From a virus (lineage: Duplodnaviria > Heunggongvirae > Uroviricota > Caudoviricetes): a stretch of 64,000 nt of DNA. Both the position numbers and the translations under genes were made by a program. Position 1 is the stretch's first letter; each line of letters opens with the position of its first letter. Shown here piece after piece: positions 35,617-53,126 of the stretch. A model generated the notes under the pieces. The model did not search any database. It was not told where the DNA came from and saw nothing but the letters and a program-made list of their open reading frames with translations. The DNA is taken from positions 60,236 to 124,235 of the IMG/VR virus record IMGVR_UViG_3300045007_000064. One strand, given 5' to 3'.

Positions 35617-35617
35617 G

Positions 35618-35693: not shown

Positions 35694-35694
35694 C

Positions 35695-38697: not shown

Positions 38698-38736
38698 GGT
38701 CTCAGCCTAACAGGTGTCGCCTGCTGTGTCAAGGCG

Positions 38737-39012
38737 TCAGTACGCCGTGTTGTCCTCGTGACCGCAGGAACCCTTGTGATTGACGGGCTTCTTGCATGGT
38801 TTCCATGTCCAGTCACTCGCATCCCATGCGTCCACGTCCCGGTAGGCCTGACCGCACTCATAGCTGTCGCTGTGGGTGTGGTAGAACCCGGCTCGACTGT
38901 TCGGGAGCTTGCCCAGCTCGGGTCCCGTCAGCTTCTTGATTCCTTGCTGCACTTCCGATAGCTCGTGGAGTAGTCTCTCCTCTTCGCGCTGAAGATCGCT
39001 GAGGGCGCTCAT
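38737..39012 (-). CDS. hypothetical cysteine/histidine-containing protein
   Basis: Start taken at MSALSDL. Confidence 0.4.
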   Translation of the reverse strand: MSALSDLQREEERLLHELSEVQQGIKKLTGPELGKLPNSRAGFYHTHSDSYECGQAYRDVDAWDASDWTWKPCKKPVNHKGSCGHEDNTAY

Positions 39013-39386: not shown

Positions 39387-39694
39387 TTACCGTCCTGGTT
39401 GTCGTCGTCTACGAGGATCAGACCCTCCGGCCCTGCTTCCTTGGCGTAGGAGAGAATCTGGTAGCGACCGGTGCCACCGCCCGAGTGGGAGTGAAGTTCA
39501 CGAGGCCAGATGCCACGGCTTTCCATCCACTGGAGAACGTCGAAGCCGGAGTCCCAGCCGATCAGCACGTAGTCCAGCGAGACCACATCGTAGTCATTCT
39601 CCTGGAGCAGGCTGCGCGCATCGTCGGCGGTCTTGGCTACGTCCCAGTTCTCGTCCGGAGCGGGGCGCTCATCGTCTACCCAGAGTTTCTTCAT
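39383..39694 (-). CDS. hypothetical protein, WVDDERP paralogue 2
   Basis: N-terminus MKKLWVDDERPAP...VVSLDYVL; tandem duplicate of the neighbouring gene. Confidence 0.5.
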   Translation of the reverse strand: MKKLWVDDERPAPDENWDVAKTADDARSLLQENDYDVVSLDYVLIGWDSGFDVLQWMESRGIWPRELHSHSGGGTGRYQILSYAKEAGPEGLILVDDDNQDGK

Positions 39695-39744
39695 ACTGCC
39701 AGGGTACACGAGAAAGGCCCCGCTGTCAAGCGAGGCCTTTCCGG

Positions 39745-40818: not shown

Positions 40819-40872
40819 GAGTCCAGCGTATACGAAAAAAGCCTCGCTGTCAACGCCAGCGAGGCTATGTTC

Positions 40873-40946
40873 TTGGTGGGTCCTGCGGGGATCGAACCCG
40901 CGCTTGAAGGGTAAAAGCCAACAGTGCTCCCGCTACACCAAAGACC
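40873..40946 (-). tRNA. tRNA (anticodon not resolved), CCA encoded
   Basis: Good acceptor stem and T-arm GCGGG-TTCGATC-CCCGC; the anticodon stem is ambiguous. Confidence 0.45.
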
Positions 40947-40947
40947 C

Positions 40948-41019
40948 GCACTCCCACCTGAAATCGAATCAGGACTTCGAGGACCAAAATCTCGCGTGGC
41001 TACCGTTACACTATGGGAG
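40948..41019 (-). tRNA. tRNA-Gln (anticodon TTG)
   Basis: A1-U72 pair, T-arm CCTGA-TTCGATT-TCAGG, anticodon loop TTTTGGT. Confidence 0.5.
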
Positions 41020-41079
41020 TATGTGGAAGCTTTAAGGACTCGAACGTGCGCACGTTTGTCCCACGGTTTTCCAACCTCC

Positions 41080-41150
41080 GCTCCCCAGCCTGGATTCGAA
41101 CCAAGACGAGCAGATTCAGAGTCTGCCATGCTACCGTTACATCACCGGGG
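41080..41150 (-). tRNA. tRNA-Gln (anticodon CTG)
   Basis: U1-A72 pair, anticodon arm GCAGA-CTCTGAA-TCTGC, T-arm CTTGG-TTCGAAT-CCAGG. Confidence 0.7.
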
Positions 41151-41266
41151 AATACGCCTGCCGCATCTACACATACGCTTTGAGGCCGTGACCCAGGCCA
41201 GCAGGACTTCTGTGGAGGTCTCGACTTCGATTTCGCCCCGAAGGATACGCATATCGACTCCACATT

Positions 41267-41337
41267 GCTCCCCAGCCTGGTTACGATCCAAGTCTTCGAT
41301 GTTCAGAGCATCGCGTGCTGCCAGTACACTACCGGGG
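41267..41337 (-). tRNA. tRNA-Gln(CTG)-like paralogue with T-loop ATCGTAA
   Basis: Same acceptor as the preceding gene, anticodon arm CGATG-CTCTGAA-CATCG, A in place of T54. Confidence 0.4.
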
Positions 41338-41346
41338 AATAGATGG

Positions 41347-41466
41347 GCTACATGCCCACCAAGATTGCTGCTACGAGAATGATCAGTCCAAGACCGATGG
41401 TGGCGAGGGTGATCTTCACGTCTGAGGGCGACTTGAACTGGCCCTCTTCTTCTGCGTCGAATGTCA
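41347..41466 (-). CDS. small membrane protein (39 aa)
   Basis: Under 60 aa. AGGA ribosome-binding site, strong GC3 bias, one predicted transmembrane helix; lies between tRNA genes. Confidence 0.35.
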
Positions 41467-41483
41467 TGCTGACATCCTACCAC

Positions 41484-41558
41484 ATGGTGTCCCCGGAGGG
41501 GATCGAACCCTCGACCAAGGTCTTAGGAGGACCTGATTCTGCCACTGAACTACGGAGA
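41484..41558 (-). tRNA. tRNA-Arg (anticodon CCT), CCA encoded
   Basis: Anticodon arm AGGTC-CTCCTAA-GACCT and T-arm CGAGG-GTTCGATC-CCCTC. Confidence 0.75.
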
Positions 41559-41774
41559 CATATGCTGACCTGTAAGCCGGGTTCTGTCGTTGAAGACGCA
41601 CATCTACCTTCGCCACATACCCGCTCATCATCGGGGAATGACACCCTAGAACTGTTTGTGTTGCACCCACGGCCTCACCGCTGCTTCATTAGTCTGTGCT
41701 TAGTGGACGTACCACACGGCTATCATTCGGGTGCCCGGACTTTCCTCAGCTTGCGCCGCGTGCGTCCAGTCAGC

Positions 41775-41847
41775 GTGCCAACACCGGGATTCGAACCCGG
41801 AACCTTCAGCCTCGGAAGCTGCTGCTCTATCCATTGAGCTATGTCGG
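41775..41847 (-). tRNA. tRNA-Arg (anticodon CCG)
   Basis: Anticodon loop TTCCGAG and T-arm CCGGG-TTCGAAT-CCCGG. Confidence 0.6.
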
Positions 41848-41848
41848 C

Positions 41849-41923
41849 GTGGTCTCCCCGGCAAGAATCGAACTTGCATCGCCTGGTTCGTAGCCAGACA
41901 TCGTATCCATTGGAACACGAGGA
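41849..41923 (-). tRNA. tRNA-Arg (anticodon ACG), CCA encoded
   Basis: Anticodon arm TCTGG-CTACGAA-CCAGG. Confidence 0.7.
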
Positions 41924-41973
41924 GTTACCTGCGACTTAAACAGAGCACCGACTTTACGATGTTGCGCCGCATT

Positions 41974-42046
41974 GTACCCCAAGAGGGATTCGAACCCCCG
42001 ACCTCTGCATCCGTAGTGCAGCGCTCTATCCACTGAGCTATTGAGG
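41974..42046 (-). tRNA. tRNA-Arg (anticodon ACG), second copy
   Basis: Anticodon arm CTGCA-CTACGGA-TGCAG and T-arm GGGGG-TTCGAAT-CCCTC. Confidence 0.55.
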
Positions 42047-42047
42047 C

Positions 42048-42120
42048 GCATGGGTGGCAGGATTTGAACCCGCGACACGTCGGGTTGGAGCCGACTGCTC
42101 TGGCCTCTGAGCTACACCCA
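42048..42120 (-). tRNA. tRNA-Trp (anticodon CCA)
   Basis: A1-U72 and G73, anticodon arm GTCGG-CTCCAAC-CCGAC, T-loop TTCAAAT. Confidence 0.7.
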
Positions 42121-42564
42121 TATAGTGGTCGAAGAGCGTCTGAGATATTCAAGCGCTCTGAGAAGACCTGTTTCGTTGTCGCCTAGCATTCCGATCCCAG
42201 TGTTGCAGGGAGCGCAGAGTAGGCCTCGTACACACTTACCGCACGAGTGAGGCCCCGGGCAGCAACTGTGGTCATGGTCCACAACCTTAGCAGGTCTTGC
42301 CTGGCAAGACCAGCACATCCCGTTGAACATGGCAAGGAGTTCCTGCCATCGTTCGACCGAGATACCATGACGAGTATGTGAAGGACCATTCTTCTTGTGA
42401 ATGGCTTGCGCCTTGTCAATGTACTTCTGACGGTTGGCTTGGTAGTGCGACTTTCGATAGGCGCGGTGGCAATCCTTGCACTGGGCAGCGCGTCTGACGT
42501 TCTTCACTCGCCAGCTATAGTTCTCTTCTGGCTGAGTCACGCCACACTTGGTACACTTCTTCAT
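42112..42564 (-). CDS. HNH endonuclease
   Basis: VVDHDHS...CGKCVRGLLCAPCN. AT-rich. A TATAAT box lies 7 nt upstream of the ATG. Its 3' end overlaps the tRNA-Trp gene by a few nt. Confidence 0.7.
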   Translation of the reverse strand: MKKCTKCGVTQPEENYSWRVKNVRRAAQCKDCHRAYRKSHYQANRQKYIDKAQAIHKKNGPSHTRHGISVERWQELLAMFNGMCWSCQARPAKVVDHDHSCCPGPHSCGKCVRGLLCAPCNTGIGMLGDNETGLLRALEYLRRSSTTIWV

Positions 42565-42737
42565 ACTCACATTATAGCACTCCAAAATATTTCGTTTGGA
42601 GACCGCACCCCACCGACGAATCGAACGCCGCACGCAGAGGGTTGGAATCTCTACTGGTACCCAGACCGTGGGATATATGACGACCAACGCACTACAGTCC
42701 AGTTCGCGACCATTGCCGTAGGTGAATTGATCATCCG

Positions 42738-42809
42738 CTCCCCCGCCTGGATTCGAACCAGGGACCTTAGAGTTAACAGCTCTCTGCTCTGCCGCTGAGC
42801 TACAGGGGA
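42738..42809 (-). tRNA. tRNA-Asn (anticodon GTT)
   Basis: Anticodon loop CTGTTAA and T-arm CCTGG-TTCGAAT-CCAGG. Confidence 0.65.
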
Positions 42810-42877
42810 ATACGCTACACATTCGCTAATCAACATGCTTTCGCACCGTTAGCCTAAAAGGACAGTAGCCTTCCTCG

Positions 42878-42950
42878 CTCCCCCGCCTGGTGACGATCCA
42901 AGCTCACGCGGTTAACAGCCGCGGGTTTTACCAACATAAACTACAGGGGA
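42878..42950 (-). tRNA. tRNA-Asn(GTT)-like paralogue with T-loop ATCGTCA
   Basis: Anticodon arm CGCGG-CTGTTAA-CCGCG, A in place of T54. Confidence 0.4.
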
Positions 42951-43021
42951 ATATGGGGACCGTTCCTTTTACGGATTCGTTGGTTACCCCAGCACGGTCC
43001 TACACCGGGGGTTGTTACGTC

Positions 43022-43501
43022 TTAGAGCCAGTCTGCCTCTGGGTGGCTCCACCTGTAGGCTTCCTCGAAAGTCGGCTTGTAAGGCTGGAATGCCAGGGTC
43101 ATGCCGCTCTGTTCAAGCGACTTGTCACCCTTCTTGTTGTTGCAGGGCTGGCAAGCGGCAATCGAGTTCTCCCACGATGCGGGGTTACCCTTGGACTTGG
43201 GCTTGATGTGGTCCACCGTGGTAGCCTTGCCGCCACAGTAGGCACAGACGAAGCCGTCTCGCCTCAGGACGCCACGCTTAGAGAACGGGATGACGCCTGT
43301 GCGGTTGTACTTCCACTTGGCGAAGACGTACCGGACCAGCTCGACAGCCGTAGGCCGCTCGTAGGGGCCGAACATCTCACCAGCAATGCTCTTCAGAATA
43401 CGAGCCTTGCCCTGGTGGACCATCTTGATTGCGTGGGTCAGACTGACGCGGTTCAGCGCTTCCTTACCACCTAGGTTGTAAACGATAACTGTTGCGCTCA
43501 T
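43022..43501 (-). CDS. HNH endonuclease
   Basis: CAYCGG...TVDHIKP...CQPCNNKKG. Start taken at MSATVIV. Confidence 0.7.
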   Translation of the reverse strand: MSATVIVYNLGGKEALNRVSLTHAIKMVHQGKARILKSIAGEMFGPYERPTAVELVRYVFAKWKYNRTGVIPFSKRGVLRRDGFVCAYCGGKATTVDHIKPKSKGNPASWENSIAACQPCNNKKGDKSLEQSGMTLAFQPYKPTFEEAYRWSHPEADWL

Positions 43502-43574
43502 GAGTCTGACCTCCAATCACATTCTATCACAGCGTCATGAGTTTTAGGGGGCAGTAGGTTGCCAGCCCGTCAAT

Positions 43575-43871
43575 TTAGACGATCAGAGCCATTGCCTTAG
43601 CGAATGCCTCGGGGTCGTAACCTCCGGCGTAAGCGCCTGCCCAGAGAGAAGTTGCCTCCTCACGAGCCTGCTCTGCCGTCAGAGGACCGGTTAGGTCATC
43701 ATCCGAGTGGGATTCCCAAGGGCTGTAGCAGGAGCACCCGCTGTCCGTAGACAACCAGTATCCGTCCTCAGTCTTCCAGATTCCCACAAGGTCGTAGGAG
43801 TAGTAAGGCTCAGCCAAATCTACTTCCACGATCATTTCGAACTTGTCACTGATCTTGCTTCCGTACATCAT
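43575..43871 (-). CDS. hypothetical protein
   Basis: ORF. Confidence 0.45.
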   Translation of the reverse strand: MMYGSKISDKFEMIVEVDLAEPYYSYDLVGIWKTEDGYWLSTDSGCSCYSPWESHSDDDLTGPLTAEQAREEATSLWAGAYAGGYDPEAFAKAMALIV

Positions 43872-44042
43872 GATTCTCCATTCGTTGTTATAGCGAAACC
43901 ATTCTTGGAGAACCTATGCACTTGTAGCGTAGACCGCCAGGGAATCGAACCCTGCACAACTTCCGTGTAAAGGATGTCTGCGTACCCAGCGCGCAGTCCG
44001 TATGAGTAGTACTCTAGCAGACACTCGGATGAATGTCAACTG

Positions 44043-44114
44043 TGTTCGCGAGAGGAATTGAACCTCCGACATCCGACGAGTCAGGTCGGCACTCTACCAC
44101 TGAGTTACGCGAAC
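44043..44114 (-). tRNA. tRNA-Val (anticodon GAC), tentative
   Basis: Perfect acceptor stem GTTCGCG / CGCGAAC and anticodon arm CCGAC-CTGACTC-GTCGG; position 37 is unusual. Confidence 0.45.
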
Positions 44115-44259
44115 GTGCGGGAACCTAAGAGTTAGCGACCTCTGACCATGACTCCCGAATACGTCAGCGGCTCTTGTGTTTTGGGCGACTGGTTACGGCC
44201 CGCAGGGTTTCTCGTGTGTTCCCATTTGTATACCGCCTCCAAACCCTTGTCGGCGGGAG

Positions 44260-44333
44260 TGCCGCGTCTGGGAATCGAACCCAGGACCTCTCCCGTACCA
44301 GGGGAGTGTTCTAAACCACTGAACTAACGCGGC
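44260..44333 (-). tRNA. tRNA-Thr (anticodon GGT)
   Basis: Anticodon arm CTCCC-CTGGTAC-GGGAG and T-arm CCTGG-GTTCGATT-CCCAG. Confidence 0.75.
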
Positions 44334-44420
44334 ATGGCATGAGACGGGCACCAACTCTCGCCCTTACTGAGGCTCACACACCCCAACGGATTTTGCTGTG
44401 CACAGCAGGCATTCCTACCT

Positions 44421-44494
44421 TGGTGCCGGAACTCAGAATCGAACTGAGGGCTGCTCGTTACGAAGGAGCTGCTTTACCACTAAGCGATACCGGC
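44421..44494 (-). tRNA. tRNA-Thr (anticodon CGT), CCA encoded
   Basis: Anticodon loop TTCGTAA; U6·U67 mismatch in the acceptor stem. Confidence 0.6.
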
Positions 44495-44575
44495 ATGCAG
44501 GGTTTTTCACTGACAGCCTCTACTGTCACTCGGATATTACCGAGACGCATTCCTAGGAAATGTCCCTTACGTTTG

Positions 44576-44648
44576 TGCCGGAGTTGGGAATCGAACCCAC
44601 GTTAATCCGCTTTACAAGAGCGGTGCAAAACCACTATGCATCACCGGC
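44576..44648 (-). tRNA. tRNA-Thr (anticodon TGT)
   Basis: Anticodon arm CCGCT-CTTGTAA-AGCGG; the same U6·U67 mismatch. Confidence 0.65.
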
Positions 44649-44656
44649 AAGAGTGC

Positions 44657-44766
44657 TGGAGGACTTGAACCTCTCGGACGCCGCATGGACCCTAGGCCTG
44701 TTTTACATGCGTTAGTGCGTGCCTGTTATTTTCTTCAGCCCGAATCATTACGGGTCTACAGCACCG
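44657..44766 (-). pseudogene. unresolved tRNA-like element of about 110 nt
   Basis: 7-bp acceptor stem (GGTGCTG / CAGCACT) and T-arm (TTCAAGT loop) with about 45 extra nt between the D region and the T-arm. Confidence 0.25.
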
Positions 44767-44840
44767 TGCGGAGAACGGGGATCGAACCCGCGACCTTCTC
44801 GTTGGCAACGAGACGCTCTGCCAGATTGAGCTACCTCCAC
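44767..44840 (-). tRNA. tRNA-Gly (anticodon GCC)
   Basis: Anticodon arm TCTCG-TTGCCAA-CGAGA and T-arm GCGGG-TTCGATC-CCCGT. Confidence 0.7.
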
Positions 44841-44962
44841 TTAGGTGCATGGGCATTACCCCCATGCTGGCCGACACCCCTGTAACGAAACTCAGTCGGA
44901 GAGACCCGGCACTGCGTTTTAGCCTCGTCAAGTGCGTTCGAGGGAGCCGTATGCATCCGGCT

Positions 44963-45036
44963 TGGAGCGACTAGCGGGAATCGAACCCGCGCGTACACCA
45001 TGGCAAGGTGTCAAGCTACCATTACATCATAGTCGC
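44963..45036 (-). tRNA. tRNA-Gly (anticodon GCC), second copy, CCA encoded
   Basis: Anticodon arm ACACC-TTGCCAT-GGTGT and T-arm CGCGG-GTTCGATT-CCCGC. Confidence 0.5.
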
Positions 45037-45142
45037 GTATGGACACGGCGTCCCCAGAGCGACTGCCCGAGGACAACAATAACGACTTCGCTATTCGCAT
45101 TCACATATCGTTACCGCTAAGCACCCGTATCCGGTTGCTCCG

Positions 45143-45213
45143 AGTGAGTGACGGGGATCGAACCCGCGACAACAGGGTGGAAGCCTGTCATGTTACCGCT
45201 ACACCACACTCAC
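45143..45213 (-). tRNA. tRNA-Gly (anticodon TCC)
   Basis: Anticodon arm ACAGG-CTTCCAC-CCTGT. Confidence 0.7.
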
Positions 45214-45362
45214 GTATCTGTACCATTCTAGCACAGAAGTGTTTAGGGCGCAACCATCGAAAGTTGCATCTGCCACGCGGGAAGTCATGACTTTCCCGGT
45301 TCCGCCTCGGGTAGTACTCCCCGATTTGGACAAGGCCGTGTTTCCATTGACACCAGCCCCCG

Positions 45363-45436
45363 TACCCCCACTCGGACTCGAACCGAGGACCCACCGCTTA
45401 AGAGGCGGTTGCTCTAACCAACTGAGCTATAGAGGC
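45363..45436 (-). tRNA. tRNA-Lys (anticodon CTT)
   Basis: Anticodon arm ACCGC-CTCTTAA-GCGGT and T-arm CTCGG-TTCGAGT-CCGAG. Confidence 0.7.
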
Positions 45437-45507
45437 AAATTGAGAAGGGACGTTTGTGCCACTCGTCCTGCCGTGATCATTCGGCCATGCCCTTCTCGGA
45501 CGCGACG

Positions 45508-45581
45508 TGGGTCCCACGGGATTCGAACCCGTATTCCGCTGGGTAAGAGCCAGGAGTAATAAGCCGTTATACCAGAGACCC
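45508..45581 (-). tRNA. tRNA-Lys (anticodon CTT), second copy, tentative
   Basis: Anticodon loop CTCTTAC and T-arm ACGGG-TTCGAAT-CCCGT. Confidence 0.45.
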
Positions 45582-45689
45582 AAATGCGAGGCGGCAAGAT
45601 TTGTGACCTTTGCGCTTCTCTCCGGTACGGTCATGCGGAGACCTCGTGCTATTACAGTACTACAAGTCGGGGCTATTGTCAACCCCTCG

Positions 45690-45775
45690 CGGCGAGCAGA
45701 GAAATCGAATCCCACAGCCTTGCGACTGCCGACTCCTTAGCAGGGAGCGCCCAGAACCATCGGGGATTACTCGCC
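45690..45775 (-). tRNA. tRNA-Ser (anticodon GCT), class II
   Basis: Anticodon arm GCTCC-CTGCTAA-GGAGT, long variable arm, T-loop TTCGATT. Confidence 0.55.
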
Positions 45776-46127
45776 AAAGATACCACCTAAGTAAAGGTAC
45801 GAGCAACCCTCCTGTGTCTCATGGACGTGTACCCCTGTCCCCGTAAGCCTACTTAGCAACATACAGGACTCGATACACCAAGGTTGCAACCCAAGCCGCA
45901 CAAAGACGACGTGTGGTAACGCGGAGAGCAGAGTAGTCGAAACCCATACCTTGCGGTACCAGCGGTGTTCAAAGCCGCGCCGTCATTCCCTGCCGGTTTA
46001 CTCTCCATGGCGGTGAGCAGAGTATTCGAAACCCATGCCCGGAGGCACCATCAGTTTTCGAGGCTGAGTCACGGAACCCCCGTGATTTACTCACCATGTG
46101 CCGGGATCAAGGCTCCCGGCGAGCCTA

Positions 46128-46302
46128 CTAGACGCGAGTGTCCGTCTTCTTGCCTGTGATGTAGCGCCACAGCCACGAGATAAGGGCAACGAGTGCCAGG
46201 GCCAGGGCGATCCAGAGCATCCACTTCACGGCCTCGACCAGAAGGCCGAATCCAAAGAAGATGATTGCAAGGACAATAAGCACGATCAATAGTGCGTTCA
46301 TG
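46128..46302 (-). CDS. small membrane protein (58 aa, two transmembrane segments)
   Basis: Under 60 aa. AGGAG ribosome-binding site 11 nt upstream; hydrophobic. Confidence 0.45.
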
Positions 46303-46323
46303 AGTTGTGTTACTCCTAGTTAA

Positions 46324-46641
46324 TTACCAATTGCGATCCGGGAACAGGTAAACCAAGTCAGCAGGGGTGATTGAGTAAATCTCAATTCCTCGCTTCCGGA
46401 ATTCCTTGATCAATTTCGCACCAGAATGGTCGTCCGACCACTCCAGGTCTCCATGATCCCCCGGGAACAGATAATCCTCCGGGTGAAGATCGTACACGAC
46501 CTCGTTGAACTTGTCAACCGTCAGGTCCCACGGGGCGTCAACAACCACCCAATGTCTCCACTTCTTTCGAAGGTCCTTCTTTGTCAAAGTACCTACGATT
46601 TCACCCACGAAGAAATTCTGCATGGGTACATCGTAGCACAA
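46324..46641 (-). CDS. hypothetical protein
   Basis: ORF with lower GC than its surroundings. Confidence 0.45.
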   Translation of the reverse strand: MCYDVPMQNFFVGEIVGTLTKKDLRKKWRHWVVVDAPWDLTVDKFNEVVYDLHPEDYLFPGDHGDLEWSDDHSGAKLIKEFRKRGIEIYSITPADLVYLFPDRNW

Positions 46642-46644
46642 AAC

Positions 46645-46744
46645 TGCACGGCCCGCTCACAGGATTCGAACCTGATTTCGGCGGGTGGGCTTATTTACCA
46701 TCGTCCCAAGTTCATCCATTCGGTAACCAACCGTTGGGCCGTGC
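46645..46744 (-). pseudogene. tRNA-like element with a 9-bp extended acceptor stem
   Basis: GCACGGCCC / GGGCCGTGC stem, D-arm-like CGG-TTGGTTA-CCG, T-arm (TTCGAAT loop), and no recognisable anticodon arm. Confidence 0.3.
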
Positions 46745-46748
46745 ATTG

Positions 46749-46834
46749 CGGTGGGCAGCGGAATCGAACCGCAAGGATTTTCACCCTCGACTATCTTTCC
46801 AGGATAGCTCCGTCACCATCAGGAGTTACCCACC
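46749..46834 (-). tRNA. tRNA-Ser (anticodon GGA), class II
   Basis: D-stem CTCC / GGAG, anticodon arm CTATC-CTGGAAA-GATAG, long variable arm. Confidence 0.6.
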
Positions 46835-46927
46835 ATTTTCCTCTGTGTACTTTTCACGTCTTGCTTCAAGCGACTCGCCCTGTCTGCATATCAACAGCTT
46901 CAGACGGTCTAGACCCACTATAACCAA

Positions 46928-46958
46928 AAACCCCCGGCTTGTCAACCGGGGGTTTCTA
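46928..46958. terminator. bidirectional terminator
   Basis: AAAAACCCCCGG-CTTGTCAA-CCGGGGGTTTCT. Confidence 0.55.
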
Positions 46959-47084
46959 GGGTAAGTAGTTTAGTCCTAGAGCGCCCCGATGATCCCGTTG
47001 ACGGATGATACCGTACGGGTCCACTGGTTGCGCTTCGAACTTGTCATACCGACAGTCTAGCACAGATTTGGATGGGTGTCTAGC

Positions 47085-47276
47085 TCAGAACAGAGGTTCC
47101 TGAGATTCGTCGTCCTGGCGGCGCTCTAGGAACTCCGCCCAAACGACCCACGCCTCGGCGGCGCGGCGGGCGAATTCGGGGCTTGAGTCATTCTCATCCG
47201 TGATGTCGAATGACCACTCACCAACGTCATACCAGTCCGGTAGTTCGTTGTGAGGTGTGACAGTTGGTCGTGTCAT
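47085..47276 (-). CDS. hypothetical acidic protein
   Basis: ATGA coupling to the thyX stop codon. Confidence 0.4.
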   Translation of the reverse strand: MTRPTVTPHNELPDWYDVGEWSFDITDENDSSPEFARRAAEAWVVWAEFLERRQDDESQEPLF

Positions 47277-47974
47277 GGTGCTACTCTTCCGTGCTCGTTC
47301 CACAGCTCGAACACGAGTGGGAACTGTTCTGAGAGCAGAGCTTCAATCTTCTTCGAGGCCTGCTGGATTTCATACTGGGGGTGGCCCTGGTAGGTGGACC
47401 ATTCTTCATTCGTCCGAAGACTCAGGAAGTGGAGCCAACCGCGAAGGTTGACCGAGGCGTACATCGACTTCTTGATTCCGGTGGGGATAACCGAACGCGC
47501 GGCTTCCTTGGACCATCCGATGTCAAGCAGCTCTTCGTAGGCGTTCCAGGCGTACGTGTACGCCTCGAACTGAACCTCGATACCGCGTTCGTACTGCTCC
47601 TGCGATGCGGGAGCCATTTTCGGGCGTGCGGAGGTTCCTACGTTGACCAGCGGGCGCTCGGGAGCCGGTTGCCAGAAGCGAGGGGTGGCCTTGGTGTAAC
47701 GGCCCGACTCCTCGTTGAAAGACTGGATGCGGTGGCGGTGCCATTCGTAGAAGGTGAATAGCTCTGCCTCTACGCGGATGGTAGCCCAGGCGTGCTCGAA
47801 CGGGGTACCGTGACGCTGCTCCATGAGGTAGTTGAGAAGACCGCGAATGCGACCTTCATCCTTCTCGCGCTCGTCAACCGTGGTGGAAATCCATGCGGCT
47901 CGTGCGATTGCAACGTCATCGCCTACGTGCTGGATCAGCTCGACCGTAGGCTCAGAGAATGTCTCGATGCTCAA
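47273..47974 (-). CDS. thyX: flavin-dependent thymidylate synthase
   Basis: ThyX motif RHRxxxxxxxS, seen here as WHRHRIQSFNEESGRY. Confidence 0.85.
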   Translation of the reverse strand: MSIETFSEPTVELIQHVGDDVAIARAAWISTTVDEREKDEGRIRGLLNYLMEQRHGTPFEHAWATIRVEAELFTFYEWHRHRIQSFNEESGRYTKATPRFWQPAPERPLVNVGTSARPKMAPASQEQYERGIEVQFEAYTYAWNAYEELLDIGWSKEAARSVIPTGIKKSMYASVNLRGWLHFLSLRTNEEWSTYQGHPQYEIQQASKKIEALLSEQFPLVFELWNEHGRVAP

Positions 47975-48363
47975 AAGCTCTTGACCCCCGAGTTCTTCGT
48001 GTCGGCGCGGCGAGCGTTGTATTCAATCTTGCCGACCAGGTGCGCGAGAGTATCCTCAGCATCGAGACCGTAGAACTCGATGATTTCGTAGATGGTGCCG
48101 AAGGATCGGATAATCGCATCGAACTTCTCGATGAGATAGCCTTCGAGCTTGTTGTCACCCGAGAGGTAAATCTCGTGGGGAGCCTTGCCCTTACGCAGCT
48201 CGTCCAACGCCTCAGCTAGCTCGCTGACCTCCAAGAGGTCCTTCTTGGCGAGGTAGTCCACGCCGTACCCGTCTGCCTCCGCTGCCGCGAATCCGTTGTA
48301 GCCGTTCTTGCCGTTCGTCTCGCCTGCAAGCACGACGAGTTCTGAGAGTGTCTGATTTGTCAT
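47971..48363 (-). CDS. hypothetical protein (possibly nucleoside 2-deoxyribosyltransferase-like)
   Basis: Start taken at MTNQTLS; the functional call rests on weak similarity only. Confidence 0.4.
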   Translation of the reverse strand: MTNQTLSELVVLAGETNGKNGYNGFAAAEADGYGVDYLAKKDLLEVSELAEALDELRKGKAPHEIYLSGDNKLEGYLIEKFDAIIRSFGTIYEIIEFYGLDAEDTLAHLVGKIEYNARRADTKNSGVKSF

Positions 48364-48457
48364 GAGGGATATCTTACACGAAGAAACCCCTCCGTGCAAC
48401 GTCGGAGGGGTTTCAATCAGGAGTAACAAGCGGTTGGAATGCGCTGAGACTAGTGTA

Positions 48458-48724
48458 TCACACCAGGCTCAGGTGGTCGTACTTACCGAGACCGCCGCGC
48501 TGGATCAGTCGCTCGGCAATGGCGTTGTTGATCACGTACGGCATCCGCACGACAGAAATGCCGAGCACTTTGGATGCGACCCGTTCGAGGTCCTTCTGCC
48601 TCATCTTGCCACCATGGTCCCGCAGCACATCGACCGTGGTGTTGATCCAGTCCCAGAGCTGACTCACACCGGGGCTGGAGACATCGCGCTCGATGTCAGG
48701 CATTTCGCTGAGGTAGTGACCCAT
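48458..48724 (-). CDS. hypothetical protein (MGHYLSEM family, member 1)
   Basis: N-terminus MGHYLSEMPD is shared with the ORF at 48985..49416. Confidence 0.45.
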   Translation of the reverse strand: MGHYLSEMPDIERDVSSPGVSQLWDWINTTVDVLRDHGGKMRQKDLERVASKVLGISVVRMPYVINNAIAERLIQRGGLGKYDHLSLV

Positions 48725-48985
48725 TTATCGCTCCTTCTGGGCTGCTTCGAGTGTTTGTGGTGGGGTGGGGGTGTTGTGGTTTGAGAAGAACTCGGTGTCA
48801 GGTCCGAAGTACGGGGGAGTACAATTCCCCTCGCTGTATAGCTCGATGATGTTTCCATCCTCGTCATAGACGTTCGTGATACACCGGCACGGACCCTCAT
48901 GTCCTGGATCGAGAGAGCACCCATGCGATCCCCAGAAGACATCGCAGTACAGCGGGTTGTCGTAGTCCCAGTCATCTCGTGGCAT
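48725..48985 (-). CDS. cysteine-rich hypothetical protein
   Basis: C..C...C.C...C pattern; the start position is uncertain. Confidence 0.4.
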   Translation of the reverse strand: MPRDDWDYDNPLYCDVFWGSHGCSLDPGHEGPCRCITNVYDEDGNIIELYSEGNCTPPYFGPDTEFFSNHNTPTPPQTLEAAQKER

Positions 48986-49416
48986 TAGTACCATCCCTCG
49001 CTGTGCTCGTTGCTCTCTGCGATGACTTCCCACGGCCCGTATGTGACGGTGCGCTTCATGACGCGGCCCGGGCGACCGGTACGGTCCTGGTTACCATGAG
49101 ACCGGATAGACTGCTCGCCCCACTTGATCTGCTCCTCTTCGGAGGCACCACTAGATGGGCTGTACAGATGCATGCGCTGAGGCTTCCACTCGCTGAGAGG
49201 CGGATCATCCGGGCGCTTCGGGAGATATCGAGCGCTGTAGTCGTACACGTCGTAATCAACCGCATACTCGACACGAACGGTGTCTTCGTCCATACTTCCG
49301 AGTACATCTTCGGGCTGGTTGACGGCTCGTCGGGCCTTATCCTCCAGACCAACTCTCTTCCGAGTCGGAGACACGCTTGGCCCGTCTGACATTTCGCTAA
49401 GATAGTGACCCATCAT
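48985..49416 (-). CDS. hypothetical protein (MGHYLSEM family, member 2)
   Basis: N-terminus MMGHYLSEMSD. Confidence 0.45.
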   Translation of the reverse strand: MMGHYLSEMSDGPSVSPTRKRVGLEDKARRAVNQPEDVLGSMDEDTVRVEYAVDYDVYDYSARYLPKRPDDPPLSEWKPQRMHLYSPSSGASEEEQIKWGEQSIRSHGNQDRTGRPGRVMKRTVTYGPWEVIAESNEHSEGWY

Positions 49417-49874
49417 TCCTCCGAGTCTTCAGGCCAGTTGGTACCGGCTGTCATGGTTCCGGGGTCGAGCTGCGTGTGACCGGCATCGTGGATCACGGTG
49501 GTCATCTGCTTGATCTTCGTGGGACCGGCGTCCAGCACCACGACCTTGCAGTCGGGATGCACGCCCAGCGCCACCAGGGCCGCGTGCACGGCGTGTGCGG
49601 CGAGCTTGTTGGGCGTGGCCTTGTCCTTCAGCGCCCGGTTGAGGTAGATGCGCATCTTGGGCTGTGGACGGTCCTGCGGCCCCTCAGCCGCCAGCTCAGC
49701 GCTGAGGCGGTTGCGGAGGAGGCGCTTCTCGTCATAGGACGAGGCAACGTTCGCTCGGAGCCGTTCAATCTCCTCCGCCGCCTCCAGGATCAGAGAGGCG
49801 GGCACGGAAGCACGACCCGTATCACTCGGGTAGGTGGCATGTGCTCGAAGCAGATCACTCAGGTTCTCAGTCAT
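49413..49874 (-). CDS. peptidyl-tRNA hydrolase, PTH2-like (tentative)
   Basis: KMRIYLNRALKDKATPNKLAAHAVHAAL resembles the PTH2 core motif. Start taken at MTENLS. Confidence 0.45.
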   Translation of the reverse strand: MTENLSDLLRAHATYPSDTGRASVPASLILEAAEEIERLRANVASSYDEKRLLRNRLSAELAAEGPQDRPQPKMRIYLNRALKDKATPNKLAAHAVHAALVALGVHPDCKVVVLDAGPTKIKQMTTVIHDAGHTQLDPGTMTAGTNWPEDSEE

Positions 49875-49878
49875 GACT

Positions 49879-49917
49879 CCAACATACACGAAAAAGCCCC
49901 CGACCGCAAGGCCGGGG
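49879..49917 (-). terminator. rho-independent terminator
   Basis: Minus-strand hairpin AGCCCCCGG...CGGGGGCT followed by TTTTT, just upstream of the PTH2-like gene start. Confidence 0.55.
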
Positions 49918-49996
49918 GCTAATTGTCCAACGTAGCTCATCCCGTTGGATCGACAGTTACGGATGACCGAGAGCTTCAGGGGTTCCGTTGTCGTCG

Positions 49997-50071
49997 TCTC
50001 GCAGAGGGGATTCGAACCCCCAGCATCGCGGACTCTCATTCCACGTGGTCTACCAGATTGCCTACCGCGAG
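49997..50071 (-). tRNA. tRNA (anticodon not resolved)
   Basis: Acceptor CTCGCGG / CTGCGAG and T-arm GGGGG-TTCGAAT-CCCCT; the D and anticodon arms are ambiguous. Confidence 0.45.
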
Positions 50072-50081
50072 ATAAAGGAGA

Positions 50082-50152
50082 CGAGAAGTCAGGACTCGAA
50101 CCCGATCCAACGCCCATAACGGCGCTGTGCTGACCCTTACACTACATCTCTC
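50082..50152 (-). pseudogene. tRNA-like element (imperfect)
   Basis: T-arm TCGGG-TTCGAGT-CCTGA and D-arm are present, but the acceptor stem has mismatches and the loop that should hold the anticodon is 6 nt long. Confidence 0.3.
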
Positions 50153-50234
50153 AGGAGGCTAGTGAGACCTACCTGCTCCTGCACAGCGTCCAGCCCGATC
50201 AGGTCACTATCCCAATTTGACTTTCTGCTTTGCG

Positions 50235-50308
50235 TGCCCCTGGTGGGGTTCGAACCCACAGACCCCAAGGTTTGAGCTTGGTCCATATTCCTGTTCTGGT
50301 ACAAGGGC
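50235..50308 (-). tRNA. class-I-shaped tRNA with anticodon CAA (a leucine codon)
   Basis: 74 nt, 5-nt variable loop, A73. Anticodon arm CCAAG-CTCAAAC-CTTGG and T-arm GTGGG-TTCGAAC-CCCAC. Confidence 0.45.
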
Positions 50309-50309
50309 A

Positions 50310-50789
50310 TTACTTTCTGTACTTGTGAGGCATGTTACTGGTCTCTTCCTGCGAGTGGCAATTAGGACAGATGAATCTGAGGTTGTCCCGTCTGTTATCC
50401 TCCCACTTCCCATTGATGTGATCAATTTCTAGTGTAAGCTTCTTACCGTTCCAGGATGGGCCTAGACCGCAGCACGCGCACTCCTCGCTTCGACCGATTG
50501 ATATCAGTGCTCTGCGCAGCGCAGCGGTCTTTTCTTTGCCGCGAGAGATGTCTCTCAGTACAAGTACTTCGTCCGGAGTGCGTCTATTTCTAGCCGCTCG
50601 TCCCTTTGACCACCCCTGACCTCTGAAATGAGAAGTGTCAACCTCAAACTCCTTCAGCTTTTTGCTGATATGGGAGTGAGTGCCACCAGCCCGTCGAAGA
50701 CCGAGGTAGTCAAGAACTTCCATGATGCTGATGCTGTTGGCAGCAGCTTCTGTTAGAAGCTCTTTGGTATACTTGATGTGCTTTGCCAT
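50310..50789 (-). CDS. HNH endonuclease
   Basis: EIDHINGKWEDNRRDNLRFICPNCH. AT-rich. Start taken at MAKHIKY, which has a TATACT-like box close upstream. Confidence 0.7.
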   Translation of the reverse strand: MAKHIKYTKELLTEAAANSISIMEVLDYLGLRRAGGTHSHISKKLKEFEVDTSHFRGQGWSKGRAARNRRTPDEVLVLRDISRGKEKTAALRRALISIGRSEECACCGLGPSWNGKKLTLEIDHINGKWEDNRRDNLRFICPNCHSQEETSNMPHKYRK

Positions 50790-50806
50790 ATACCAAGTAT
50801 ACCATT

Positions 50807-50880
50807 GTATCCGTGGAGGGATTCGAACCCACACTGCACAGGACCTAAACCTGTTGCCTCCTACCGTTGGGCTACACGGA
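50807..50880 (-). tRNA. class-I-shaped tRNA with anticodon TAG (a leucine codon)
   Basis: 74 nt, anticodon arm ACAGG-TTTAGGT-CCTGT, T-loop TTCGAAT. Confidence 0.45.
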
Positions 50881-50944
50881 CATACAGCGCCAGGGAAGAG
50901 CGTGGCAACCCTTCACAAGTCGGCCTTCCACCGAACCCTGACTC

Positions 50945-51017
50945 GTAGCGCAGACCGGATTCGAACCGGCAGCATCTGATGTTCTGGGCATCAGTGGTCT
51001 TCCGTTGCCTACCGCGC
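50945..51017 (-). tRNA. class-I-shaped tRNA with anticodon CAG (a leucine codon)
   Basis: 73 nt, anticodon arm TGATG-CCCAGAA-CATCA, T-arm GCCGG-TTCGAAT-CCGGT. Confidence 0.45.
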
Positions 51018-51128
51018 CATATCGGATACGCTCGCGGGGTATCCCTCCCAGTCTAACAAACTGCAAGAGAGCACTCACGCATCCTCAGACCTTGCGACAG
51101 ATACCCTCTGTCAGGCGAGTCACTCCTT

Positions 51129-51200
51129 GTGGGACCGAGGGGAATCGAACCCCTGCCATTCGGGCTTCAACCGAACGCTCTACCTACTAAGCTACAGCCC
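51129..51200 (-). tRNA. tRNA-Phe (anticodon GAA)
   Basis: D-arm GCTTAGTAGGTAGAGC, anticodon arm TTCGG-TTGAAGC-CCGAA, T-arm AGGGG-TTCGATT-CCCCT. Confidence 0.75.
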
Positions 51201-51224
51201 CGTTGCCCCGAAGGGCTGTCCCGG

Positions 51225-51396
51225 CCTACGCCGAGACGACTACGAGAGTGACCTTGCGATCATTCTCCAGCGCTCGCTTGCCCATGCGGGCCAGCTCACG
51301 CGACGAATACACGAACGGCTCGCCGTTCTTCTGACGGACGATCTGACGATCTTCCTTTGTCACCAGGGTGAACTTCTCATTCTTGTTATTTGTCAT
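51225..51396 (-). CDS. small hypothetical protein (57 aa)
   Basis: Under 60 aa. Moderate GC3 bias; starts 2 nt downstream of the tRNA-Tyr gene. Confidence 0.3.
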
Positions 51397-51397
51397 G

Positions 51398-51472
51398 TGG
51401 CGAGACTGAGAATCGAACTCAGAGGGGCTACTGTTTTACAGACAGCGCAGGGACCCAGCCCTAGACCTCGCC
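51398..51472 (-). tRNA. tRNA-Tyr (anticodon GTA) with a short variable arm
   Basis: Anticodon arm GCTGT-CTGTAAA-ACAGT and T-arm CTGAG-TTCGATT-CTCAG; 75 nt. Confidence 0.5.
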
Positions 51473-51601
51473 ATATCTGCGTTTGCTTTCATCCTGTACC
51501 GTAGTATTCCACCAGGCAATCCAGGTCCCGCAGGTTCCGTGCTGTGTCTAAGTTACCACGTAGGTCCTGGCACGTCAAGCCCTACGATCTTTTGTTTCAA
51601 G

Positions 51602-51675
51602 TGATGCGGACGGGAATCGAACCCGCGACGCCCGGATTGAAAGTCCAGGTTGCAACTACCAGCGTACACCGCACC
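51602..51675 (-). tRNA. tRNA-Glu (anticodon TTC)
   Basis: Anticodon arm CTGGA-CTTTCAA-TCCGG and T-arm GCGGG-TTCGATT-CCCGT. Confidence 0.55.
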
Positions 51676-51760
51676 ATTCGGCAGGGGAGAAGTGGTGAAC
51701 GTCCTCCATTTTCCTGCCTAAGTCCAGAAGGCTTATCCACCAACAACCTTTCCTGACTTG

Positions 51761-51832
51761 TACTCCCACGGGGAATTGAACCCCGACCTCATGACTGAGA
51801 ATCACGTGTACTAACCATTATACTATGAGAGC
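51761..51832 (-). tRNA. tRNA-Glu (anticodon CTC)
   Basis: Anticodon loop TTCTCAG and T-arm CGGGG-TTCAATT-CCCCG. Confidence 0.6.
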
Positions 51833-51844
51833 ATATTTCATGCG

Positions 51845-51916
51845 TCCTCGCGAAGGGAGTTGAACCCTCTCTACAAGCTTGACAAGCTTGCGTGCGCACC
51901 GGTACACTACGCGAGG
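51845..51916 (-). tRNA. tRNA-Asp (anticodon GTC)
   Basis: Anticodon arm CAAGC-TTGTCAA-GCTTG; perfect acceptor stem. Confidence 0.7.
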
Positions 51917-52161
51917 AAAGGTGAGTAGTGGGATCGCCCCACACTGACAGGTAGACATTCGCTAAAATGAATTGCTGTCAGACCATGCGTTAGCCGCTAA
52001 GCAAATCCCGTTCATGACCGCTAAGTCGTTCCGGTTGACCCAGACTCACCGATTGGCTCTGCCTGTGACCTCCGATTGAGATTCCACATGTGCGTTTCGT
52101 CTCCCGCATCTACTACGGGATTTCGTTCCGCCATACTCCAGTCGAGTGCCCCCGACTGTTG

Positions 52162-52236
52162 CGATCCTGACCGGATTTGAACCGGCGACCTCCTGCTTGA
52201 CGGGCAGGCGAACACTCCAAACTGTTCTACAAGACC
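52162..52236 (-). tRNA. tRNA-Asp (anticodon GTC), second copy
   Basis: Discriminator G73, anticodon arm CCTGC-CCGTCAA-GCAGG, T-arm GCCGG-TTCAAAT-CCGGT. Confidence 0.5.
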
Positions 52237-52303
52237 AATCTCCGTCATATCCTGGACGGCCAGGCCCGACTGTCGGGCTAGAGCTAGAAATACTCTAGGT
52301 TCG

Positions 52304-52377
52304 TTGCGGGAGTTGGAGTCGAACCAACGTCGTCAGGTTATGAGCCTGCACCGGAACCACCTCCGGGTTACCCCGCA
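52304..52377 (-). tRNA. tRNA with anticodon CAT (third copy; Met, fMet or Ile2)
   Basis: Anticodon loop CTCATAA and T-arm GTTGG-TTCGACT-CCAAC. Confidence 0.5.
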
Positions 52378-52417
52378 ATACCACTGTATCACACGTTCAG
52401 AGTACGTGTCAACTCCG

Positions 52418-52491
52418 GGTGACCGACGGGGTTCGAACCCGCAAAAAACAGGTCCACAACCTGCCGCATTTTCCGCCTCTGCCACGGCCAC
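52418..52491 (-). tRNA. tRNA-His (anticodon GTG)
   Basis: Discriminator C73 and anticodon arm GCAGG-TTGTGGA-CCTGT. Confidence 0.65.
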
Positions 52492-52529
52492 ACTTAGGGA
52501 GGATATAGACCAGGGGTCCACTCCTCTTG

Positions 52530-52605
52530 TCGGGATAACAGGATTTGAACCTGCGACCTCACGCCCCCCAGGCGCGCGCTCTAAACCAAACTGAGCTATA
52601 TCCCG
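52530..52605 (-). tRNA. tRNA-Pro (anticodon GGG)
   Basis: Perfect acceptor stem CGGGATA / TATCCCG and anticodon arm CGCGC-CTGGGGG-GCGTG. Confidence 0.7.
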
Positions 52606-52671
52606 TTACGTAGGTTCCTCATTCGTCGGAGTCTATACCGAGCACGGGAGTTTACCCACAACTAACCTGCG

Positions 52672-52745
52672 TCTAGGTGACAGGATTTGAACCTGCGACT
52701 TCTCCCGTCCGAGGGGAGCGACCTACCAAGCTGGCCTACACCTAG
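52672..52745 (-). tRNA. tRNA-Pro (anticodon CGG)
   Basis: Acceptor CTAGGTG / CACCTAG and anticodon arm CTCCC-CTCGGAC-GGGAG. Confidence 0.65.
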
Positions 52746-52835
52746 TCAGGTTGTTTCAACGAAGGCTCCTCAGCCTCTCCCTCGGATGTGCCGTCTGTGA
52801 CGATAGGCTCCCAGGACCGATCCTGCGTTAGTTAG

Positions 52836-52876
52836 ACTCTAGCAGACCGAATCTGCCGTTGTCAAGTGTCGAAGCT
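52836..52876 (-). promoter_or_regulatory. strong sigma-A-type promoter driving the second tRNA array
   Basis: Minus-strand TTGACA, an 18-nt spacer, then TAGAGT; the leader contains a UUCG-loop hairpin. Confidence 0.55.
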
Positions 52877-52944
52877 CCTACCCACCTGGCACATCGACTT
52901 TAGGCACGTAACTGCCCACTCTCCGCTTCCCCGAAGGGAAGAAT

Positions 52945-52985
52945 TAGACTCTAGCAGACGCATCTGCCAGTGTCAAGCACGTACG
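52945..52985 (-). promoter_or_regulatory. second tandem promoter driving the tRNA array
   Basis: Minus-strand TTGACA, a 17-nt spacer, then TAGAGT. It lies inside a roughly 50-nt direct repeat shared with the promoter at 52836-52876. Confidence 0.55.
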
Positions 52986-53055
52986 GTGTTCTACCTTAAA
53001 CTACCAGACGAACCAACGCCCGGGCGGGACTACGATACCCCCATCTCCGTACTCG

Positions 53056-53126
53056 TCAAGCTGGGGAGAATCGAACTCCCACCTCAAGGTCCCAAACCCC
53101 GTGCGCTACCATTACGCTACAGCCTG
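53056..53126 (-). tRNA. tRNA-Pro (anticodon TGG)
   Basis: D-stem GCGT / GCGC, anticodon loop TTTGGGA, T-arm GGGAG-TTCGATT-CTCCC. Confidence 0.5.

Follow-up and report, generated by a model that had tools for sequence, protein, structure and literature searches.

Can bacterial leucine and tyrosine transfer RNAs (tRNAs) work without the long variable arm that places them in class II? The question is raised by genes of a tailed virus (Caudoviricetes) contained in a stretch of 64,000 nucleotides (nt) that we refer to as the window (positions 60,236 to 124,235 of IMG/VR record IMGVR_UViG_3300045007_000064). A preliminary description of window positions 50,235 to 51,472, made by reading the sequence, pointed out three genes with leucine anticodons and one with a tyrosine anticodon on short, class I bodies. 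These were proposed to be either unusual short-arm isoacceptors or anticodon-bearing decoys or mimics. The window is part of the genome of a large phage (~190 kb) whose kin are the Microbacterium phages Big4, Zooman, A3Wally, Cece, Pumpernickel and one further phage. We place at roughly 0.75 the probability that four short tRNA-Leu genes of this phage are working type I leucine tRNAs and that the short tRNA-Tyr gene likely serves as a tyrosine tRNA as well.

Short tRNA-Leu genes

ARAGORN identified four short (type I) tRNA-Leu genes, all on the minus strand: Leu(GAG) at 49996..50071, Leu(CAA) at 50234..50308, Leu(UAG) at 50807..50881 and Leu(CAG) at 50945..51018. Their scores against the Rfam tRNA model RF00005 (33.5, 53.9, 51.7 and 33.7 bits, respectively) are all at or above its gathering score of 29 bits. 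The anticodons CAA, UAG and CAG are those named in the preliminary description, and the three genes are real; the fourth, Leu(GAG), lies just outside the start of the segment treated there and had been missed. The genes are 73-75 nt long and form cloverleaves with the leucine anticodon centred in a 7-nt loop. As first described, the variable loops have 5 nt (GGUCU in Leu(CAA), GCAGU in Leu(UAG), and AUGCU in both Leu(GAG) and Leu(CAG)) and the T loops read UUCGAAU or UUCGAAC. A73, also described earlier, is found in all five short genes (the four Leu genes and the Tyr gene), none of which encodes CCA.

Read off the sequence, all four Leu genes have a leucine-type core consisting of U8-A14, A15-U48, G18G19 and a 5-nt loop ending in U, together with A73. 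Thus, A73 and the 15-48 pair, which had been suggested as leucyl-tRNA synthetase (LeuRS) identity elements to look for, are both present. In E. coli, the tRNA-Leu determinants are A73, A15-U48, G18G19 and A20a, and the long arm and anticodon are dispensable (PMC9976931). The D stem of Leu(CAA) has 3 bp (CCA/UGG), with A14 A15 and G18G19. Leu(UAG) has the D arm GUAGCCCAA..GG.AG..GGC, and G37. In Leu(GAG), C.A and A.G mismatches follow a D stem of 2 bp, and the anticodon stem has 6 bp. U33 is present in Leu(GAG), Leu(CAA) and Leu(UAG). Leu(CAG) differs in having C33, whereas its counterparts in the six related phages all carry U33.

Using ARAGORN (default and relaxed settings) and alignment, we identified neither a long-arm Leu or Tyr gene in the window nor a remnant of one. 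The Leu genes lack the long variable arm of canonical class II tRNAs; ARAGORN revealed no such arm that had been overlooked in the short genes, and their anticodons stay Leu and Tyr. The long arm is kept in three tRNA-Ser genes of 86-87 nt (two had been reported earlier as class II), which provide an internal contrast to the short genes. These are Ser(GCU) at 45689-45775 and Ser(UGA) at 45921-46006, both found by ARAGORN with relaxed settings, and Ser(GGA) at 46748-46834, found with the default settings, all on the minus strand. The long variable arm is required by seryl-tRNA synthetase (PMC7609411).

Leucine codon use was determined for 49 long open reading frames (ORFs) of the window, which has a G+C content of 58%. 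The codons used are CUG (34%), CUC (33%), CUU (20%), CUA (7%), UUG (4%) and UUA (2%). Together, the anticodons GAG, CAG, UAG and CAA read ~98% of these codons.

An origin of the short genes by anticodon change from another isoacceptor was considered and rejected, as there is no donor among the other 39 tRNAs of the window. The best non-Leu identities in that set are 67-71%, no higher than between unrelated tRNAs.

Conservation in related Microbacterium phages

Long and short tRNA forms replace one another across seven syntenic phages (that of the window and its six relatives). Leu(CAG) is short in all seven and Leu(CAA) is short wherever the gene is present, and class II versions of these two were found in none. 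Orthologues of the window's Leu(CAA) occur in Zooman and Cece, and the Big4 and Pumpernickel copies retain the GCC/GGC D stem of a wider family (see below). Leu(GAG) is short in five phages, with orthologues in Big4, Zooman and Cece, and is class II (86 nt) in A3Wally and one further relative. Leu(UAG) is short in this window only; the six relatives have a class II gene (81-83 nt). Tyr(GUA) is short (73-76 nt) in six of the seven, and a class II gene (84 nt) stands alongside it in A3Wally, Cece and one further relative. The check in related phages that had been proposed at the outset thus shows that short Leu and Tyr genes are conserved across this group. In the deposited annotation of A3Wally (MZ150783.1), the anticodon of many tRNAs is read as a codon, so that GAG became tRNA-Glu and GUA became tRNA-Val.

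Leu(GAG) and Leu(CAG) are paralogues that are 76% identical. Genes of this type have a D stem of two G-C pairs followed by C.A and A.G, a leucine-like D loop (AAYnnGGnAGA) and a 6-bp anticodon stem, and their sequences place them in a separate lineage confined to these syntenic Microbacterium phages. When nine CAG and GAG sequences are aligned, every stem cell of the alignment (180/180) forms a standard pair, and 14 of the 20 pairs are changed on both sides. None of 500 shuffles reached the observed values, and sliding the partners lowered pairing to 36-49%. Because the short genes persist in related phages with compensatory changes in their stems, they are not chance cloverleaves. They are constrained RNA genes, and chance is excluded.

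Type I tRNA-Leu in other phages and on bacterial chromosomes

The window's Leu(UAG) gene (75 nt), used as a query, matches 119 GenBank phage records, in 78 of which one alignment spans 80% or more of the gene. Wherever a feature is annotated under a match, it is a tRNA-Leu. The hosts of the matching phages are Streptomyces, Erwinia, Mycobacterium, Gordonia, Pseudomonas, Synechococcus, Prochlorococcus, Microcystis and Myxococcus. ARAGORN confirms Leu genes of 75-78 nt in phages Comrade, Hena2, Mwe-JY26 and Aziz, and the same tRNA body bears UAG, CAA, AAG or UAA in different phages.

We also scanned IMG/VR viral contigs and GTDB genomes for the D-arm motif of this family, GTAGCCCAA(1-4)GG.AG(1-2)GGC. 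The counts from these scans are those among the matches listed, and are lower bounds. IMG/VR contains at least 122 tRNAs with the motif; 117 of the 122 listed have leucine anticodons (UAA 50, UAG 27, CAA 25, GAG 10, AAG 4, CAG 1), and all are of 73-79 nt. For GTDB, 106 of the 109 motif-bearing tRNAs listed are Leu genes of 74-79 nt. Over both sets (223 listed), the acceptor, anticodon and T stems vary widely yet pair, at all 17 positions in 154 cases; A73 is present in 213, a 5-nt variable loop in 196 and U as the last loop base in 206. All six leucine anticodons occur on the same body. A single body that bears six leucine anticodons, and hardly any others, would be expected from a synthetase that pays no heed to the anticodon.

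A profile hidden Markov model, built from 186 type I tRNA-Leu genes of genomes and viral contigs, gives 57.1 bits for the window's Leu(UAG), which is clearly a member of the family. Leu(CAA) is borderline and divergent (18.3 bits; its Big4 and Pumpernickel orthologues reach 25-32 bits). The scores of Leu(GAG) and Leu(CAG), 10.5 and 9.4 bits, are at the background level, the same as for unrelated tRNAs.

The preliminary description took bacterial tRNA-Leu to be normally class II. This does not hold for Actinomycetota, where short-arm genes are ordinary on chromosomes, those of Microbacterium included. At 84 genome loci among the matches listed, mostly on Actinomycetota chromosomes, the short Leu gene is the only tRNA within 8 kb (e.g., in Nocardia, Amycolatopsis, Arthrobacter, Corynebacterium, Nocardioides and Streptomyces). 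The same neighbouring ORFs recur in different genera, being common to 26 and 17 of the listed UAA loci and to 11 of the CAA loci, which argues for vertical inheritance over carriage by prophages. Microbacterium psychrotolerans and two Microbacterium metagenome-assembled genomes (MAGs) carry a type I tRNA-Leu(UAA) of 74-75 nt. Dense arrays (17-34 tRNAs in 8 kb) that include a short-arm tRNA-Leu were seen in a Nostoc MAG, an Elusimicrobia MAG, an Acidobacteriota MAG and Asanoa.

The build has been studied in Streptomyces coelicolor, whose five tRNA-Leu comprise four of type II and a single one of type I, tRNA-Leu(CAA) (Fan, Huang, Ji, Wang, Nucleic Acids Res 2019, PMC6614811). A single LeuRS charges both types, the type I tRNA at about half the type II rate, and the leucine-specific domain of the enzyme confers type I charging. 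The length of the 5-nt loop and U8-A14 matter for this reaction, and A73 does not. Attempts to delete the tRNA-Leu(CAA) gene failed (PMC6614811). The S. coelicolor enzyme does not charge human mitochondrial tRNA-Leu, and the type I tRNA-Leu of S. coelicolor is not a substrate for E. coli LeuRS (PMC6614811). The latter report, which concerns an enterobacterium related to Erwinia, contrasts with the gene content of Erwinia phage Hena2 (OM522317.2, Kolesnikvirus), which encodes three short tRNA-Leu at 1254-2113 (UAA, AAG and CAA; 74-75 nt plus CCA) and no long-arm tRNA-Leu.

Like the S. coelicolor tRNA, those of the window are bacterial-type tRNA-Leu with a 5-nt variable loop, found beside class II relatives. 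The D-arm motif of the window's Leu(UAG) is present on short tRNA-Leu(CAA) genes of Streptomyces and other actinomycetes, the S. coelicolor sequence itself being outside this comparison. Unlike the S. coelicolor gene, the window genes are phage-encoded, all four Leu isoacceptors are short rather than one of five, and Leu(GAG) and Leu(CAG), with their 2-bp D stem and 6-bp anticodon stem, are of a different sequence lineage. Animal mitochondrial tRNA-Leu and tRNA-Tyr are likewise class I versions of bacterial class II tRNAs, and keep A73 (PMC9976931). However, mitochondrial tRNAs have relaxed cores and dedicated synthetases, whereas the phage Leu genes keep the full canonical elbow.

Type I tRNA-Leu was termed rare in the 2019 paper (PMC6614811). 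One of two recent reviews (PMC9976931, PMC7609411) describes tRNA-Leu as long-armed everywhere save animal mitochondria, and neither mentions type I. The literature that we found on phage tRNAs, variable arms and class I tRNA-Leu has no mention of phage copies of short-arm tRNA-Leu; in related genomes in GenBank, such copies already bear a tRNA-Leu annotation.

The short tRNA-Tyr gene

The short, non-canonical tRNA-Tyr(GUA) gene (51397..51472, minus strand) was confirmed by ARAGORN, with no long arm, in agreement with the preliminary description. Support from Rfam is weaker, the gene falling below the gathering score. It is the only tRNA-Tyr that ARAGORN identified in the window with default and relaxed settings. 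A consensus fold was obtained from four divergent homologues using RNAalifold. It has a 7-bp acceptor stem with G1-C72 followed by one to three linker nucleotides, a D arm with a stem of 3-4 bp and a loop of 4-6 nt containing GG, and a normal T arm. In the window gene, the T loop reads UUCGAUU. The anticodon loop, CUGUAAA, is invariant, and the anticodon stem is lengthened by two G-C pairs around a bulged A. The variable region has 7 nt, or ~4 nt once the anticodon stem is read as extended, so there is no class II long arm. Compensatory changes occur in four helices (positions 31-39, positions 7-66, the D stem and the T stem). The main determinants for tyrosyl-tRNA synthetase (TyrRS), listed as A73, G1-C72 and GUA (PMC9976931), are present in the window gene.

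Homologues of the short tRNA-Tyr were found in A3Wally, Cece, Big4, Zooman and one further relative; those of Big4 and Zooman have a G.G mismatch in the acceptor stem and are missed by ARAGORN. Big4 (~4440-4525) and Zooman (~4350-4435) also contain, on the minus strand, an unannotated class II tRNA-Tyr-like gene with the anticodon loop UUGUAAC and the acceptor mismatches U2.U71 and C3.U70. The annotated class II tRNA-Tyr of Cece has the same mismatched stem. In the window, a decayed class II tRNA-Tyr beside the short one was considered and rejected, as nothing aligns in 51473-51600.

Outside this phage group, the short form was found on one IMG/VR contig only (IMGVR_UViG_3300043607_000039, 93 kb, positions 1245-1317), which is otherwise unrelated. 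The segment AGCGCUGACUGUAAAUCAGUAGC is common to its Tyr gene and to the relatives of the window. This tRNA-Tyr(GUA) has 73 nt and the same compact build, and adjoins Val and His tRNAs and an unusually long Asn tRNA. On viral contigs, 119 loci matched a 15-mer taken from the Tyr anticodon arm; 117 of them have no tRNA over the match, and only two tRNAs were recovered. The short form is rare, because nearly all of the tRNA-Tyr incidentally captured in the Leu scans are long-armed (27 of 28 viral and 7 of 8 genomic genes among the matches listed). No published bacterial or phage counterpart was met in the literature on phage tRNAs, in which no search was aimed at it.

The compact core resembles that of the pyrrolysine tRNA, tRNA-Pyl, with few nucleotides between the acceptor and D stems, a tiny D loop, an extended anticodon stem and a variable loop of 3-4 nt (PMC7609411). 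This is a resemblance only: the D loop of the short Tyr still contains GG, its T loop is canonical, and its anticodon is GUA rather than CUA. No enzyme resembling pyrrolysyl-tRNA synthetase was seen in the window.

The surrounding tRNA array

The five short genes are housed in an array of 43-45 tRNA genes for all 20 amino acids (32968..53126, minus strand of the window; ARAGORN and Rfam). The default ARAGORN search finds 43 genes, and relaxed settings add two class II tRNA-Ser. In all seven phages, the array is flanked by DNA polymerase I on one side and by a peptidyl-tRNA hydrolase gene on the other. The window homologue of the latter (49413..49874, minus strand) lies directly upstream of the Leu genes, and its product is 72-93% identical to the annotated peptidyl-tRNA hydrolase genes of the six relatives. 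Orthology rests on this tblastn comparison; a Pfam search with the product gave no match.

Two RNA ligase genes are located inside the array, both on the minus strand. One is of the RtcB type (36738..37964; Pfam PF01139, E = 1.6e-116) and the other is of the Rnl type, with an N-terminal OB fold (39745..40818; PF09414 and PF21189). Together with the peptidyl-tRNA hydrolase homologue, they look like a tRNA-repair and rescue module, which would fit a host with tRNA-cleaving defences. No aminoacyl-tRNA synthetase, whether LeuRS, TyrRS or another, was identified among the 20 window ORFs scanned with Pfam, the largest ones included, in what is a part of a ~190-kb genome.

An HNH endonuclease gene (50310..50789, minus strand; PF01844, 22.7 bits) separates Leu(CAA) from Leu(UAG). 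A synteny comparison shows no counterpart at that position in the relatives, and this suggests homing-endonuclease traffic, which could drive tRNA gene replacement. Endonuclease genes are scattered among the tRNA genes: there are two of the HNH type (50310-50789 and 43022-43516) and one with an endonuclease VII domain (42112-42822), all on the minus strand.

A tRNA-like sequence at 50080-50153 (minus strand) is called as an irregular tRNA-His(AUG) by ARAGORN and scores 36 bits with the Rfam tRNA model. Its acceptor stem is imperfect, and the anticodon loop has 6 nt (7 nt if a mismatched stem is accepted). In Big4 and Zooman, the T arm of the homologous spacer is degenerate. Part of the sequence resembles the tRNA-Pro(GGG) of Cece, and it is probably a decaying paralogue. 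A second sequence, at 34830-34907 (minus strand), scores 29.6 bits, barely over the Rfam gathering score, and ARAGORN finds nothing there; it has convincing acceptor and T arms but an aberrant middle part.

Probable function of the short tRNAs

From structure, conservation, covariation, family membership and codon coverage, we infer that these tRNAs would be aminoacylated and used on the ribosome. That the four Leu genes are working leucine acceptors is highly probable. They extend a feature already documented in actinobacteria; the Tyr gene is unusual. The original suggestion of short-arm isoacceptors thus stands for Leu, given the determinants, the compensatory changes, the codons covered and the charged kin in S. 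coelicolor; for Tyr, it is a candidate reading. For the short Tyr, the odds of a working tyrosine tRNA seem a little better than even.

The LeuRS of the Microbacterium host most likely charges the four short tRNA-Leu, given that the host genus encodes a type I tRNA-Leu on its chromosomes and must already cope with this build. Recognition would occur via the elbow and core (U8-A14, A15-U48, G18G19 and the 5-nt loop) and the acceptor end, rather than via the long arm or the anticodon. The short Tyr may be recognised through A73, G1-C72 and the GUA anticodon, which is much less certain than the scheme for Leu. The complete phage tRNA set, the two RNA-repair ligases and the peptidyl-tRNA hydrolase homologue probably form a self-sufficient translation-support module. 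Such a module would keep phage translation going if the tRNAs of the host were ill-suited or being attacked.

Several observations weigh against working tRNAs. For Leu(CAG), C33 is at odds with the U33 of 115 of 117 members of the viral family set (among the matches listed). Leu(GAG) has A37, not the G37 that is usual for readers of CUN codons. In both of these genes the D stem has only two Watson-Crick pairs, the scores are near the Rfam threshold, and there is no sequence resemblance to the validated type I family (~10 bits). The best Rfam match of the Tyr gene is tRNA-Sec, at 32.2 bits and below the gathering score of 47, and a normal U8-A14-A21 core would need a longer D loop than this gene has. 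A class II tRNA-Tyr is retained in several relatives as well, so the short one may not suffice. In E. coli, a phage tRNA-Tyr from which the variable loop had been deleted failed to rescue infection (PMC12673091).

Loss of the long arm may also have been an anti-defence measure, by which short tRNAs would translate and yet escape nucleases that cut variable arms. This idea, which is tentative and on balance unlikely, would add a selective cause to working tRNAs, mainly for Tyr. Septu and the retron-Eco7 PtuAB effector both cleave tRNA-Tyr in the variable loop around U47/C48, and the tRNA-Tyr of phages T5 and SP15 evade cleavage through a different variable loop (PMC13096335, PMC12673091, PMC11555353). 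The short Tyr is similarly phage-encoded, with a variable region unlike that of the host, and the T5 and SP15 genes are linked to defence systems that cut the tRNA-Tyr variable arm. Such cleavage is thus a plausible selective reason for remodelling the Tyr arm. The presence in the array of RtcB and RNA ligase, which have tRNA-repair functions, and the interchange of long and short Leu(GAG), Leu(UAG) and Tyr within the phage family are also in line with this idea. However, the resistant phage tRNA-Tyr in E. coli has a longer arm, and the deletion noted above abolished rescue (PMC12673091); the E. coli phage tRNA-Tyr needs its arm, whereas that of the Microbacterium phages has none. For the Leu genes, defence pressure would be needless, since host chromosomes already have type I tRNA-Leu. 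To our knowledge, Microbacterium has no known nuclease directed at the variable arm, which also counts against the idea.

It is improbable that some of the genes, namely the short Tyr and possibly Leu(CAG) with its C33, are decaying or non-functional. Degenerate tRNA-like sequences do occur in the array (50080-50153 and 34830-34907), the Big4 and Zooman copies of the short Tyr have the acceptor mismatch and are missed by ARAGORN, and C33 is specific to the window. However, the anticodon arm, T arm and acceptor stem of the Tyr gene are kept across four divergent versions with compensatory changes, and it supplies the only tyrosine anticodon of a set that is otherwise complete for the 20 amino acids. 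All stem cells of Leu(CAG) are paired.

The preliminary description's other suggestion, that the short genes are decoys or mimics, found no support for the Leu genes and is very unlikely overall. Uncharged RNAs would in this case soak up a nuclease, modification enzyme or synthetase. Overexpressed tRNA-Tyr does neutralise PtuAB toxicity in E. coli (PMC12673091), and the core of the short Tyr is non-canonical, with a low model score. However, an RNA that baits an enzyme recognising the variable arm would itself have to possess one. In the Leu genes, the acceptor stem, A73, T loop and elbow determinants are retained under strong covariation, and the four different anticodons match codon use. The same architecture is normal on chromosomes of the host phylum, and the S. 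coelicolor example is charged.

Charging of the Leu-anticodon bodies with another amino acid, which would recode CUN or UUG, has precedents in yeast mitochondrial tRNA-Thr(UAG) and Ashbya tRNA-Ala(UAG), class I tRNAs with leucine anticodons of a kind that exists in mitochondria (PMC7609411), but is extremely improbable: the leucine-type D loop (A14 A15 ... GG.AGA) is kept, the other synthetases that accept A73 read the anticodon (PMC9976931), all six leucine anticodons occur on the same body, and the short Leu genes have no G3:U70 and therefore no alanine identity.

Significance

The spread of short-arm tRNA-Leu is wider than recent work reflects (PMC6614811, PMC9976931, PMC7609411), with more than 100 genome and more than 100 viral genes listed here. 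Phages of Erwinia, Pseudomonas, cyanobacteria and Myxococcus also carry such genes. A bolder proposal would be that short-arm tRNA-Leu are common and overlooked in phages of many phyla, Erwinia hosts included, and that the short Tyr is fully functional with bacterial TyrRS and evolved in large actinophages, where it replaced the class II form to escape arm-cutting nucleases; taken as a whole, this is speculative and rather unlikely. If the short Tyr is charged, a bacterial TyrRS would be able to work without the long arm, and the gene would tie in with the recent finding that Septu and retron effectors cut tRNA-Tyr in that arm.

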